This document shows positions 5,132 to 44,413 of a DNA stretch of 64,000 nucleotides, piece by piece (within the stretch, counting starts at the first letter, position 1; every line of letters starts with the position of its first letter). Below the pieces are notes generated by a model. The model made no database searches, was not told the origin of the DNA, and saw nothing but the letters and a program-made list of their open reading frames with translations. The stretch lies in sequence record PP047755; one strand, given 5' to 3'. This stretch comes from Escherichia phage KEP1. The position numbers and the translations under genes were made by a program.

Positions 5132-5585
5132 AGTAGTAGTTCAAAAAGCAATGCTTAACAATTCAACTAAAGATAAAATGTACAAAGAGATTTGTGATAA
5201 GCTGAGTTGTTCAAGACATGCTGCTAAGGCTCTTGTGCATTGCTTTATCTTGGAATGCTCAGAAGCTTATATGAAACATATAGCTTTTGAAAGTTCTAAC
5301 TTACTAGGTGATGTAGAAGTTGGTGAGAAGCTAAAAGAACCTGAGATGAAAACAGTCCCCAAAGTTGGTAATGTATACCACCTTAAAGACTTCAAGACTG
5401 GGAAGATTGTTGCAAAAGGTGTAGTAGAATCTGTTTATCATGATGGTAAATACTTATTTAAAATATTTGAGTATGATAGCCACTACACACACTTATGTGG
5501 GATTACATTCTTAGTAACAGAAGAAGACCTCATTAAGGACAACGGCAACAAGTTTGCAGTTCCAGCTTACCAAGTTTTACGATAA
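5121..5585 (+). CDS. hypothetical protein (154 aa)
   Basis: Overlaps upstream gene end. Confidence 0.6.
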   Translation: MKVKVVVQKAMLNNSTKDKMYKEICDKLSCSRHAAKALVHCFILECSEAYMKHIAFESSNLLGDVEVGEKLKEPEMKTVPKVGNVYHLKDFKTGKIVAKGVVESVYHDGKYLFKIFEYDSHYTHLCGITFLVTEEDLIKDNGNKFAVPAYQVLR

Positions 5586-6147
5586 TGGTGTGATAGATAT
5601 GGAAAAAGATAACTTAAAAGAAGTTGAAGGTAACTACCTAGTCCTTGACTGGAATGATATTCGTGGAGCACTTTACGAAGAAAGCCTTAATAGGTTAGAA
5701 CAAATTATCTTTGCAGTACGGGGTTACAGAGAGGTTCAAAATGGTAAAGAGCCACTTGAAGGAATCTTTGTAGAGAAGTCGTATCCGTTCTATGAAGACA
5801 CTTTGCAGAAAGTTAAGATGCACTTTAAACAGAAGAATCGTAAAGTGGTCACTATGGTATCTCTTGGTGGACAGAGTATGTCTGTGATGGAAGATATCAA
5901 CCCTAAGAGACCGAGTAAAGGTGTTTGTATAAAAATCACAGGTCATGAAGAGTATATCTCGGTGGATGACTTTAGCTTATTCTGTAATGGTTCTTGTGTC
6001 TTTAATGGTTTTCACTATGATATCCGAGTGTACCCAATCAAGGGAGATGATATCATGATGCAGGTATTCGATAATAACAACGGATTTACTCATTTTTATC
6101 AGACAACCAAGTCATCATTGAAAACAGTTCTGGAAACACTGATTTAA
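5554..6147 (+). CDS. hypothetical protein (197 aa; true start may be the internal ATG at 5599)
   Basis: ORF; 32-nt overlap with upstream gene suggests a later start. Confidence 0.6.
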   Translation: MQFQLTKFYDNGVIDMEKDNLKEVEGNYLVLDWNDIRGALYEESLNRLEQIIFAVRGYREVQNGKEPLEGIFVEKSYPFYEDTLQKVKMHFKQKNRKVVTMVSLGGQSMSVMEDINPKRPSKGVCIKITGHEEYISVDDFSLFCNGSCVFNGFHYDIRVYPIKGDDIMMQVFDNNNGFTHFYQTTKSSLKTVLETLI

Positions 6148-6158
6148 AATATCTTAAG

Positions 6159-6186
6159 AGCCTCCTTAATCGGGGGCTTTTTAATT
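6159..6186 (+). terminator. rho-independent terminator ending the plus-strand operon
   Basis: GAGCCTCC-TTAATC-GGGGGCTT hairpin followed by TTTTTAATTTTTAT. Confidence 0.7.
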
Positions 6187-6189
6187 TTT

Positions 6190-7730
6190 ATAAAATTTTA
6201 TCGGTTGTCCCAACCTCTGGGTCACCATCATATGTGAATAAAATATCTACCCTTCTTAACATCCTTCTTAATCTTACTCTCTATATATAGTTATATAGTA
6301 CTATATAGTATCTTAGTAACTATCTAGTGGTCTTAATAGCCCCTCTGTATAGCCCTTCTAAACACTCTTCTAACAAGCCTTCTTAACAACCTATACAATC
6401 ACCTTAACCATACCTTTACACCCTCTTAGAAGCTCCTATACACCTCTTAATCTCTAGGTTAGCTATGTTACCCTCTATAGGTGTTCACTAGGAAATACTA
6501 AGCCTCTATATAGACTGTTTTAACAAACTTAACAGGAATATCTTTACAGACCTTATCTCACAAGGTCTAACACGGTACTAACAAGGTATCTTATAAGCCT
6601 GTTTATGCCTGTATTTTTAAAAGACTGTCTAGGTAATTATTCAGAATTTTAAAATTTTTATAAAATAGGACTATCAAGTCATTTTTTAGGGTCTTTGAAG
6701 GAACTGAAAAATATCTGTCTAGGATGTATATCTGCTTGGTAGCCCTTAACAGCTCCCTTACCATCCCTTTGCAAAATTTTAAAATATCCTTAACAATCTC
6801 TTAACAGCTACTACATCCTCTTAACATCTCTTCAGAGGTCTTAACAGATTCTTAACAGAACTAACAAGGGTGTAACAGTTTCTTAACAGTTGATACATAG
6901 GCTTTACAGAGTCTTAACAGATGACTAACAAGAGCTAAGTAGTTAAATGTTAAGAGTTATTTTGTTAAGATAATTAACAAGTTCCTAACAAGTGTTTAAT
7001 CTTTTTAACAAGCTATTAACATGGTCACTATCTCTTTTCTTATCGTTCCCTCTCTTTCTTAGTGATTCTCTTAACATGCCTCTTAAAAGCTCTCTATAGC
7101 CCCTTATAAGCTCTTTTAAGCCTCTTCCTAGTAGTTACACCCCAACTATACAAACACCTCTTTATAGAGCTTTACAGGAGCTTTTAAGACTATGTCAAAG
7201 ACTCTTACAAGGCTTTTACGTGGTCTTAACAGAGATTTAACAAGGGGCTAACAAGCATAACTATGTAGGGATTGTTAAGAAATTGTTAAGAAAATGTTAA
7301 GGGGGCTAGCATTTACGTAACTTTATAGCCTCTTTTACGTAACTTCAAAGTAACTTAACAGCCCCTATAACATACTTTTTAGAGACTATCAAGGGCTATT
7401 GAGTTATTCACAAGATAGCTAACGAGATGATAAAGCTTACACCCTTATAAGATTCTTTTGAGGCTATAGGAAGCTTTATAAAGGGCTTTTTAGAGTGGGT
7501 TAATGCAATCCCTTAAGTTAGGTTGATAAGGCTGTTATAGAGCTTTATAGAGCGTTTAAATGTGCCATCCCCTTTCTGGGGTTATTGGCTTTTATTTAAG
7601 TTGATTTGATAAGGGGCTATAGAGTAAGCTATAGAGTTATTGCTTTTAAGGTACGAGATAGATTCTGTCGAATTAGTGGGATAGATTCTGGAAAGGGAAG
7701 GAAAGGGATTGTATAGAGATTTGATAAGAC
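6190..7730. repeat. 1.5 kb non-coding region dense in short dispersed repeats (CTTAACA / TGTTAAG, CTATAGAG, ATATAGT)
   Basis: No ORF of 60 aa or more on either strand; about 18 CTTAACA-like copies including 7 within 6790-6900 and an inverted cluster GTTAAGAAATTGTTAAGAAAATGTTAAGG at 7270-7300. Confidence 0.75.
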
Positions 7731-7732
7731 GT

Positions 7733-7758
7733 AAAAAAGCCCCTATGAGAAAGGGGCT
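7733..7758 (-). terminator. rho-independent terminator ending the minus-strand cassette array
   Basis: On minus strand AGCCCC-TTTCTCATA-GGGGCT followed by TTTTTT; a second hairpin GGGGCTAAATAGCCCC at 7771-7786. Confidence 0.7.
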
Positions 7759-7796
7759 GTAAAGGTATCTGGGGCTATTTAGCCCCGCTGCGTCGA

Positions 7797-8045
7797 TTAG
7801 TTGTACCCTTGTTTGCTGTAGTACAGGGAGACAATCAAATCACCCCAATAATGGTAATGATGTTCATCGTTTAACGCCTCTTTTACTGCATCTTTCCAGA
7901 AGTCATCAGTAGGGTTATAATCTGGGATAACTTGCTTGATAACTGTCTTCACTAATGAAAAGCATTCATCAGTTCCACCAATATCAAATTTAACGTCCAG
8001 AGTGTAGCAGCCATAAGCATTAACAGTAGCGCGGATAGTAGCCAT
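7797..8045 (-). CDS. hypothetical protein (82 aa), cassette gene
   Basis: ORF preceded by conserved GGAGATTCAAAA-ATG 5'UTR element. Confidence 0.65.
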   Translation of the reverse strand: MATIRATVNAYGCYTLDVKFDIGGTDECFSLVKTVIKQVIPDYNPTDDFWKDAVKEALNDEHHYHYWGDLIVSLYYSKQGYN

Positions 8046-8110
8046 TTTTGAATCTCCTAGTTTAAGGTATTTATCTAGTGGGAGGTTATTACCTCCCGTT
8101 GATTAGTAAT
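8046..8110 (-). promoter_or_regulatory. cassette element A1: hairpin GGGAGGT-AATA-ACCTCCC plus conserved 5'UTR and ribosome-binding site
   Basis: Minus strand reads ATCAACGG-hairpin-CACTAGATAAATACCTTAAACTAGGAGATTCAAAA-ATG; one of 13 related copies. Confidence 0.7.
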
Positions 8111-8136
8111 TTACTGCATGTTGGCGTAGGTTGCAA
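8108..8136 (-). promoter_or_regulatory. sigma70-like promoter TTGCAA-17-TAAATT for the 7797-8045 cassette gene
   Basis: -35 at 8131-8136, -10 at 8108-8113, 17-bp spacer; the -10 contains the stop codon of the upstream gene. Confidence 0.55.
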
Positions 8137-8374
8137 GTCTTTTTTCGTTGTATTTTGTCAGAATCTCACAAGATAATACATCGTACTTTGTAATAGCGTT
8201 GCCTTTGTCGAGGTCAAAGAATCCGAATGCTTTACCGTCTTTGAATCCGACAACTTCGTAAGATTCTTTAATGATTTCACCATTGAACAAATCACTTTCG
8301 ATACGGTGGAATAGCGCTACATCCTCTTTGTCGGTTGCAATTTGTAAAAGTGTGGTCAGTTCGACGTGTTCCAT
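8111..8374 (-). CDS. hypothetical protein (87 aa), cassette gene
   Basis: ORF preceded by conserved 5'UTR element. Confidence 0.65.
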   Translation of the reverse strand: MEHVELTTLLQIATDKEDVALFHRIESDLFNGEIIKESYEVVGFKDGKAFGFFDLDKGNAITKYDVLSCEILTKYNEKRLATYANMQ

Positions 8375-8435
8375 TTTGAATCTCCAGTTTAGGATTTTAT
8401 TTAGTGGGGGAGGTCATCCCCCGTTGATTGACAAT
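8375..8435 (-). promoter_or_regulatory. cassette element A2: hairpin GGGGGA..TCCCCC plus conserved 5'UTR and ribosome-binding site
   Basis: TTGAATCTCCAGTTTAGGATTTTATTTAGTGGGGGAGGTCATCCCCCGTTGATTG on plus strand. Confidence 0.7.
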
Positions 8436-8461
8436 TTACAGACTTTTGATTGTCTCGTCAA
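8433..8461 (-). promoter_or_regulatory. sigma70-like promoter TTGACG-17-TAAATT for the 8111-8374 cassette gene
   Basis: -35 at 8456-8461, -10 at 8433-8438; the -10 overlaps the stop codon of the upstream gene. Confidence 0.55.
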
Positions 8462-8966
8462 TATCTTTTTCAATTTCTCTTAAAGTTTTTTCTAAGTTCT
8501 TGATATTCAGCATTAACCCCTCTCCCAGTGTCTTAGCGTAACCATTTGGGCGATGGTCATAAAGCTCGATTTCTTCCACTTCGTAAAGGCTGACATTGAA
8601 GCCCCCTACCCCGTAGGCTGTGGATGAAGTGCCTTCCGGTGCTTTGTAGTATTTATTGAGATTCTTTAAAGAGCGCTCGTAAGCCATACGATAACCGTTT
8701 AACACTGTTTTGGTGCAATCACGTACACTTTCACACTGTGCCGCATACTTTTCTAAGAACAGCGGGAGGAGTTCCGCTACCGCTTGCATGAAGTGACGAA
8801 CAACGAAAGTAGACATATTACGGCGGTGAATGTAGAAAACACCCGTATCAGATTTAGTGATAGTTGCGAAATGTTCACCATTGCAACGGAATTCATAGGT
8901 ATCTTTTACAGGCTTGGACATTACACGATTTGAACGAATGTAATTGATTGCTTGAAACTTGTTCAT
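8436..8966 (-). CDS. hypothetical protein (176 aa), cassette gene
   Basis: ORF preceded by conserved 5'UTR element. Confidence 0.65.
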   Translation of the reverse strand: MNKFQAINYIRSNRVMSKPVKDTYEFRCNGEHFATITKSDTGVFYIHRRNMSTFVVRHFMQAVAELLPLFLEKYAAQCESVRDCTKTVLNGYRMAYERSLKNLNKYYKAPEGTSSTAYGVGGFNVSLYEVEEIELYDHRPNGYAKTLGEGLMLNIKNLEKTLREIEKDIDETIKSL

Positions 8967-9035: not shown

Positions 9036-9182
9036 TTTAATTTGTCTTTGCAAGCAATTTTTTAAGTTTATCTATAAAGAATCTTTTAAGTGAATCCCTT
9101 TTAGATAAACCCCCTCGAACAAATGTACTATTGTCAAGGGGTATCGTCAAGTAATTTTTTAAAGTTTTTTATAAGTTATTGA

Positions 9183-44156: not shown

Positions 44157-44413
44157 GTAAGCCTCTTTTAAGTAACTATTAAGTTTTAATCTTTTATCTT
44201 AACGTATTCTATACGTTATACTTTAAAGCTTTTTAAAAGCTATTAAATAATCTTTTAAGAGTTTTAAAGTATCTGTATAGTTAAACTGTTAAGTAACCTT
44301 TTAAGTAAAAACCCACTTCGCAAAGATTAACACCTTGTCAAGTGCATTGTCAACTTGCTTTTTATAATTTTTTGCAGTAATGTATGTGGTTAATGATTTT
44401 AGAGGGAGTAAAA

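Follow-up and report, generated by a model that had tools for sequence, protein, structure and literature searches.

Recognition and duplication of short terminal repeats is, to our knowledge, understood in outline only for T7-like phages, and phages of the Felix O1 group, which also carry such repeats, are in wide use in Salmonella typing and in work on phage therapy. The closest described counterparts of the locus treated here are the direct terminal repeats (DTRs) of Felixounavirus. The DTR of UAB_Phi87 (608 bp) was mapped via Bal31 digestion and sequencing run-off (PMC4837284), that of Ro111lw (MH571750; 613 bp) was called from sequencing reads by PhageTerm (PMC6454146), and that of Pr103Blw is 581 bp long (PMC8303462); in Salmonella phage UAB_69 a feature of 618 bp is annotated 'DTR'. 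Here we analyse a 1.5-kb gene-free gap at positions 6190-7730 of a 64,000-nucleotide stretch of Escherichia phage KEP1 (PP047755; the whole stretch is called the window), a Felixounavirus (Felix O1-like myovirus, ~87 kb) with 94% identity to Escherichia phage KEP3 over 5500-8500. The gap goes unmentioned in the Felix O1 genome paper, the Bas63 PhageMaP paper and the Danish wastewater paper. Comparison with its relatives indicates that it is very probably the concatemer junction where the linear virion chromosome begins and ends, with the segment 6738-7306 as the DTR. The terminal repeat of the genus is an already known feature; a phased TTAACA array, mirrored edges and flank motifs add modest new detail, and all three are absent from searchable published descriptions, which give the repeat length only. 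A full-text literature search on the motif words returned nothing relevant.

In T7, CCTAAAG heptamers recur every 13 bp at 175-341, just inward of the 160-bp repeat, and three copies lie within the repeat; a staggered nick followed by strand displacement is the classical scheme proposed for that phage. The R sites of lambda cosB, the pac hexamers of P1 and pacL/pacR of SPP1 comprise 3-7 elements over 100-200 bp with a known small terminase subunit; these cosB and pac repeats flank the cleavage position or lie beside it, and they presumably bring together a recognition protein in multimeric form. In the iteron arrays of plasmid and phage origins, and in 11-bp centromere repeats such as those of R1 parC, repeats on one strand follow each other at intervals of about one helical turn.

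The assignment of the KEP1 segment is based on the ends of five records that begin inside the gap, which were retrieved and mapped to the window. In Ro111lw and in SeKF_63 (OR863361) the two ends of the record are an exact repeat of 613 bp, corresponding to window 7306..6738; both records, together with that of H12 (PP952733), start at the homologue of 7306, both repeats end at the 6738 side, and the record of pEP20 (OQ743992) starts at 6738. BPS15Q2 (NC_031939) starts at 7320, 14 bp further right, and its two ends share no repeat. The edges of the DTR annotated in UAB_69 lie 2 nt outside the homologues of 6738 and 7306 on each side. We identify 6738-7306 as the DTR homologue because the exact end repeats of MH571750 and OR863361 map there and the UAB_69 DTR agrees within 2 nt. 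In the UAB_Phi87 record, whose deposited start is not the terminus, 614 bp separate the same boundary sequences, and the boundary rule gives 579-580 bp for AYO145A and Mushroom. Erwinia phage vEam_PM_27 (PP079184.1), of the same subfamily, has 418 bp repeated at both record ends. Positions 1-8 of its record (TCCGATCT) are the reverse complement of the start of an Illumina adapter and are joined to the base homologous to window 7306; this is an uncleaned adapter remnant that marks a physical DNA end.

The Felixounavirus DTRs and the KEP1 segment are homologous, share the same invariant edges and occupy the same position between converging gene arrays, and the 569 bp of KEP1 lie within the range of the relatives once insertions and deletions of 11- or 22-bp units are allowed for. 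The difference is that in KEP1 the ends are placed by homology and not by measurement. The segment occurs once in the window, and the assembly probably collapsed a repeat of ~570 bp to a single copy, which packaged DNA would hold at both ends. The junction would then read, in order, right-end flank (6191-6737), DTR and left-end flank (7307-7737). An initial annotation of this DNA, made from the letters and a list of open reading frames (ORFs), had listed a packaging or genome-terminus region among the candidates for the gap, and its core is indeed the homologue of a mapped Felixounavirus DTR. The features of the region are as follows, a slash outside brackets marking a repeat boundary.

6156-6190, plus strand: intrinsic terminator, a 10-pair hairpin (6156-6181) followed by a T run, ending the plus-strand gene array.
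6191-6737, no strand assigned: left unique non-coding flank, C-rich on the plus strand, predicted to lie just inward of the right-end repeat copy in the virion.
6723-6751, plus strand: left repeat boundary, G(A/G)TGTATATCTGCTT/GGTAGCCCTTAACA.
6738-7306, no strand assigned: DTR homologue, 569 bp (569-614 bp in relatives).
6789-6930, plus strand: densest part of the array, 11 TAACA cores at spacings of 11, 20, 20, 11, 9, 11, 11, 31 and 11 bp.
6963-6981, no strand assigned: head-to-head pair TGTTAAGATAATTAACAAG, invariant in 10 of 10 sequences.
7227-7256, plus strand: three cores 11 bp apart, CTTAACAG, TTTAACAAG and CTAACAAG.
7271-7306, minus strand: three cores at steps of 11 bp that extend into the right repeat boundary.
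7307-7737, no strand assigned: right unique non-coding flank, G-rich on the plus strand, predicted to lie just inward of the left-end repeat copy in the virion.
7738-7758, minus strand: intrinsic terminator, a hairpin (7758-7738) with a T run, ending the minus-strand gene array.

The gap is dominated by a short repeated motif. CTTAACA occurs 46 times in the whole window, compared with 16.9 +/- 4.3 in dinucleotide-preserving shuffles, and 19 of the 46 copies fall in 6255-7360, which amounts to a 28-fold enrichment in the gap over the rest of the window. Against the same background TCTTAACA is enriched 67-fold, CTAACAAG 162-fold and CTCTATA/TATAGAG 74-fold. The initial annotation had described a motif-saturated region with about 18 CTTAACA copies and had named enrichment over the genome background as a check; the count and the enrichment both agree with it. 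The triple inverted cluster and the tandem ATATAGT-type units that it reported are likewise present, as GTTAAG at 7273, 7284 and 7295 (spacing exactly 11 bp) and as TATATAG units at 6282-6311. Its figure of seven copies within 110 bp has to be amended: there are six exact CTTAACA in 100 bp (6789-6888) or seven in 131 bp, and eight in 100 bp when CTAACA and GTAACA variants are counted. Over 6150-7780 we find 35 TAACA cores, 24 of them within the repeat (19 on the plus strand and five on the minus strand), with the consensus tcTTAACA(A/G)g.

Within the repeat the cores follow the pitch of the double helix. Neighbouring cores are exactly 11 bp apart in nine of 18 cases, and most of the remaining spacings measure 20 or 31 bp. 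Taken across the entire repeat, the plus-strand cores show a period of 10.4 bp with a resultant length R of 0.75; random placements gave a maximum over all periods of 0.48 +/- 0.06, and not one of the 5000 attained the value seen here. The plus-strand sites are therefore expected to lie on one face of the double helix. A period of 10.4-10.5 bp is also seen in Felix O1, UAB_Phi87, Moogle, Sf13 and a Suspvirus, whose repeats differ by up to 45 bp, and the same phase is kept in three genera despite insertions and deletions. In the alignment, differences in repeat length among phages come in units of 11 or 22 bp. At 7227-7256 relatives carry 11- or 22-bp insertions that add whole CTAACAAG units, and in the densest part of the array the spacers vary while the cores stay conserved.

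The cores also appear to be under selection. In three other genera core positions are 92% identical to the window, compared with 74% for the other positions of the repeat; random sets of 5-mers gave 0.776 +/- 0.042 (permutation p ~1e-4). Cores in the flanks are no better conserved than their surroundings, and we therefore conclude that selection acts on the array specifically inside the repeat. The array is read as a set of candidate protein-binding sites because its cores are helically phased and selectively conserved, and it probably constitutes a protein-binding platform. The clustered binding sites for a DNA-binding protein that the initial annotation had entertained thus fit the phasing and the conservation of the cores, and no binding protein was identified among the genes beside the gap and the large terminase gene. 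The most likely role of the array is in recognising and cutting the ends for packaging, for which specifically we would put the chances at about even.

The repeat edges are conserved beyond the genus. The left boundary is invariant in ten sequences of three genera save for position 6724 (A or G), the edge itself reading GTATATCTGCTT/GGTAGCCCTTAACA, and it is recognisable in Erwinia phages, with TGTATATCTGCTTAGTGGCC in phiEa104. The right edge, TGTTAAGGGGGC/TAGCATTTACGTA (...TGTTAAGGGGGC/TAGC), is nearly invariant across the ten sequences, with single substitutions in Sf13, and both edge sequences can be recognised in Kolesnikvirus. Read inward, both edges of the DTR begin with TAGCCC(CC)TTAACA and are thus mirror images of each other. 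Cores sit 6-8 nt from each edge of the repeat, the outermost ones pointing inward from each end.

This mirroring extends over the entire gap, which consists of two arms of opposite polarity. On the plus strand CTCTATA is confined to the part left of 7100 and its complement TATAGAG to the part right of 7160. TAGCCC belongs to the left arm and GGGCTA to the right one, and GC skew changes from about -0.45 to +0.46 across the gap, with the change of sign near 7200. The left flank (GC skew ~ -0.45) holds eight TAACA cores, three plus-strand CTCTATA and the tandem TATATAG units; its identity in three other genera is ~75%, with invariant blocks that include 6560-6602 and AAAATTTTTATAAAATAG at 6651-6668. 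In the right flank there are a tandem TTTACGTAACTT pair at 7312-7350 and a hairpin at 7563-7590, and five of the six plus-strand TATAGAG in the region lie there, the sixth being in the repeat at 7163. The architecture is kept in Erwinia phages at ~70% identity: phiEa104 has a 1.43-kb gene-free gap between converging genes, with TCTTAACA arrays and the recognisable left edge.

The left-end flank of phiEa104 (2100-2480 of the retrieved sequence) contains 12 or more copies of TTAGAAG, frequently in the form of CTTAGAAGG or TTTAGAAGA. These repeats occupy the place of the TATAGAG-type motif of Felixounavirus, and the difference between the genera could track a specificity protein.

Compared with the systems introduced above, the KEP1 junction resembles that of T7 in having a short exact terminal repeat derived from concatemers, a non-coding junction and many copies of a ~7-bp motif in and next to the repeat. 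The T7 array lies mainly outside the repeat at a spacing of 13 bp, whereas the KEP1 array fills the repeat at the 10.4-bp helical period; promoters are present at the T7 ends and the small terminase subunit of that phage is known (gene 18), whereas the KEP1 ends are insulated by terminators and no small subunit is known. The resemblance to T7 is one of layout, with no sequence similarity. As in cosB and pac sites, the repeated elements of KEP1 adjoin the putative cleavage positions, here the repeat edges, although in KEP1 24 elements are spread over 570 bp, with two cut sites, and no binder was identified. With iterons and R1 parC the array has in common that its repeats recur on one strand at roughly every helical turn, which implies that binding is cooperative and on one face of the DNA, but it has no adjacent initiator or partition gene and it coincides with the terminal repeat.

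A model that accommodates these features predicts that a phage protein would bind the 24 TTAACA cores cooperatively on one face of the helix, marking the DNA for the packaging enzyme. One nick per strand, ~570 bp apart, would be positioned by the mirrored TAGCCC(CC)TTAACA edges, the nicked strand being in each case the one that enters the repeat in the 5' to 3' direction, and strand-displacement synthesis from the two 3' ends would provide a full repeat for both neighbouring chromosomes. The staggered-nick scheme is geometrically consistent with the mirrored edges. In a more specific version, which we offer only tentatively, the protein would polymerise along the ~24 phased sites, measure the repeat and direct the nick at each edge, so that the repeat itself would be the packaging signal, with specificity given by the flank motif (TATAGAG in Felixounavirus, TTAGAAG in Erwinia phages).

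Several observations weigh against the terminus assignment or against a packaging role for the array. The ends of KEP1 itself are placed solely by homology, and the two published sets of edges disagree by 2 nt. Global phasing in the Erwinia genus is weak, with a best period of 11.5 bp (p ~0.06). The staggered-nick step is a model and not an observation, and the array might act in replication or end protection, whether in place of packaging or in addition to it. Furthermore, among the neighbours of the terminase gene and in the flanks of the gap we found neither a small terminase subunit nor another DNA-binding protein that might read the array: the ten genes flanking the gap match no Pfam family and only PHROGs of unknown function, and a 66-aa ORF that precedes the large terminase gene in PP952733 belongs to phrog_4397, is acidic and is of unknown function. 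The Felix O1 genome paper reports only the large terminase subunit (TerL). The gene for that subunit lies outside the window, ~16.5 kb from the end in PP952733, and a divergent small subunit that escapes recognition is possible.

In the search for a binder, the ORFs beside the large terminase gene of PP952733 (phrog_4397 and DUF7217) gave no DNA-binding or small-terminase signal. The 82-aa gene beside the right flank does not resemble in sequence the 83-aa gene that phiEa104 has in the corresponding place.

The alternative that best survives is that the array constitutes the iterons of a phage replication origin, instead of or besides a terminus, where an initiator would bind the repeats and melt AT-rich DNA. 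Helically phased direct repeats, here with a 10.4-bp period reached by none of the 5000 random placements, are typical of iteron origins, and to the immediate left of the repeat there is an AT-rich block that includes the invariant AAAATTTTTATAAAATAG (GC ~0.30 at 6500-6800; conserved at ~6600-6700). Two of the four perfect DnaA-box matches in the window (TTATTCACA; consensus TTATNCACA) fall in the flanks in inverted orientation (6233-6241, minus strand; 7404-7412, plus strand), though in most relatives these sites carry 1-2 mismatches or indels (range 0-2 mismatches). The local change in the sign of GC skew near 7200 would also suit an origin, but the motif arms, being of opposite polarity, account for it. 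The array coincides with a mapped terminal repeat and does not lie beside a replication gene; the ten flanking genes include no initiator-like gene by Pfam or PHROGs; and the locus is a point of transcription convergence, with the replication genes and the divergent early region ~37 kb away. An origin is therefore unlikely, and of the initial annotation's proposal of an origin with iterons there remain, as weak support, the two partly conserved DnaA-box-like 9-mers and the AT-rich block, with no initiator gene nearby.

Binding of a protein with no part in packaging is, in our estimate, quite unlikely. Such a protein could protect the ends from host exonucleases, pair repeats for concatemer recombination or, if it were a host nucleoid protein, silence the ends. 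After injection the array would be located at both physical ends with its outermost cores pointing inward, no Chi site lies near the ends, and the related phage Bas63 is described in the PhageMaP paper as being without a RecBCD inhibitor, all of which would suit a protective or pairing function. No candidate protein is at hand for it, however, and the invariant mirrored sequences exactly at the cut positions favour a role in making the ends over one of only covering them.

The coding content of the gap and its surroundings bear on whether it is expressed. No ORF of at least 60 aa overlaps 6190-7730 on either strand, as the initial annotation had stated, and the longest has 53 aa. Each of the five ORFs of 30-53 aa is disrupted among nine relatives, through lost starts, stop codons and frameshifts. 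The last plus-strand gene before the gap ends at 6147 and the last gene of the minus-strand array occupies 7797-8045. The placement of the gap between convergent terminators, also recognised in the initial annotation, is confirmed by the two hairpins and by terminators annotated in related GenBank records at both matching places; the terminators on either side would prevent transcription of the converging gene arrays from entering the gap. The Felix O1 genome paper describes four transcription units, and the gap corresponds to the convergence point of its 'genes 97-131/1-23' and 'genes 40-24'. The non-coding region has matches in 255 phage records.

Small genes annotated as 'hypothetical protein' are found in the terminal repeat region of PP952733 (CDS0001 and CDS0002) and OR863361 (CDS0001-0003), and more such genes are present in NC_027360 (Phi87_32-34) and OL656108 (gp027 and gp028). 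These annotations in the gap of relatives are probably false gene calls because their frames lack conservation.

A long conserved non-coding stretch could also encode one or more non-coding RNAs, and a hairpin followed by a T run at 7563-7595 (z = -2.8) shows paired changes in its outer stem. Searches of the gap returned no Rfam family and no tRNA, the latter in line with the initial annotation, and nine promoter-like sites compared with 7.0 +/- 2.8 in shuffles represent no excess. Conservation tracks short DNA motifs and their spacing instead of helices, and terminators insulate both sides, making an RNA-coding function very improbable. That the gap is functionless spacer or low-complexity DNA, with a motif excess arising from base composition or slippage, can hardly be maintained even though the region is AT-rich and has small tandem duplications, because the enrichment far exceeds dinucleotide-preserving shuffles and the cores are selectively conserved across genera, and the architecture persists in Erwinia phages at ~70% identity.

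If the gap is the terminus, the true genome ends of KEP1 would likely be at ~6738 and ~7306 in window coordinates, with a collapsed repeat of ~570 bp. The conserved phased array and its mirrored cut sites would offer concrete, mutable targets for the mechanism of end formation in a group with no known small terminase, and the gap would be DNA for phage engineers to keep intact.

The initial annotation had also related the gap to the divergent region at 44160-44410 through shared motifs. Per 300 bp, one CTTAACA and three TTAACA/CTAACA hexamers occur there, a density also reached in six other such intervals and not above background, and the relation is not supported. A second possible link, CTTTTAAG, was set aside: it is shared by both regions, but its copies lie mostly in genes and have no common context. 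CTTTTAAG occurs 22 times in the window compared with 5.4 expected (four-fold; for example at 9083, 11219, 13171, 44165, 44252, 44298 and 54969), almost always on the strand opposite to local transcription. The excess probably reflects codon or dipeptide bias of coding sequence and not a signal.

Other elements of the flanks were noted. Two copies of the near-palindromic ATTTTTATAAAAT, at 6184-6200 and 6650-6668, are both invariant across three genera; one follows directly after the left terminator and the other lies ~70 bp before the repeat. Possible roles are those of a -10-like promoter element, an unwinding element and a binding site. In the right flank, the 7563-7595 hairpin on the plus strand has two tiers (GCCA..CCCC-TTTCT-GGGG..TGGC) followed by TTTTATTT and a predicted folding energy of -14 kcal/mol. 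Its outer stem is GCCC...GGGC in most relatives, a paired change. It looks like a plus-strand terminator, and upstream of it there is no gene and no evident promoter. Lastly, short palindromic units of the GATTCGATAGAATC or ATAGATTCT type form insertions of 24-45 bp at differing places of the gap in different phages: at 7659-7690 in the window, at ~1100-1125 in Moogle and ~1900-1930 in UAB_Phi87 (both in coordinates of the retrieved sequences), and near the left terminator in EP1. This distribution suggests a small mobile or slippage-prone element.

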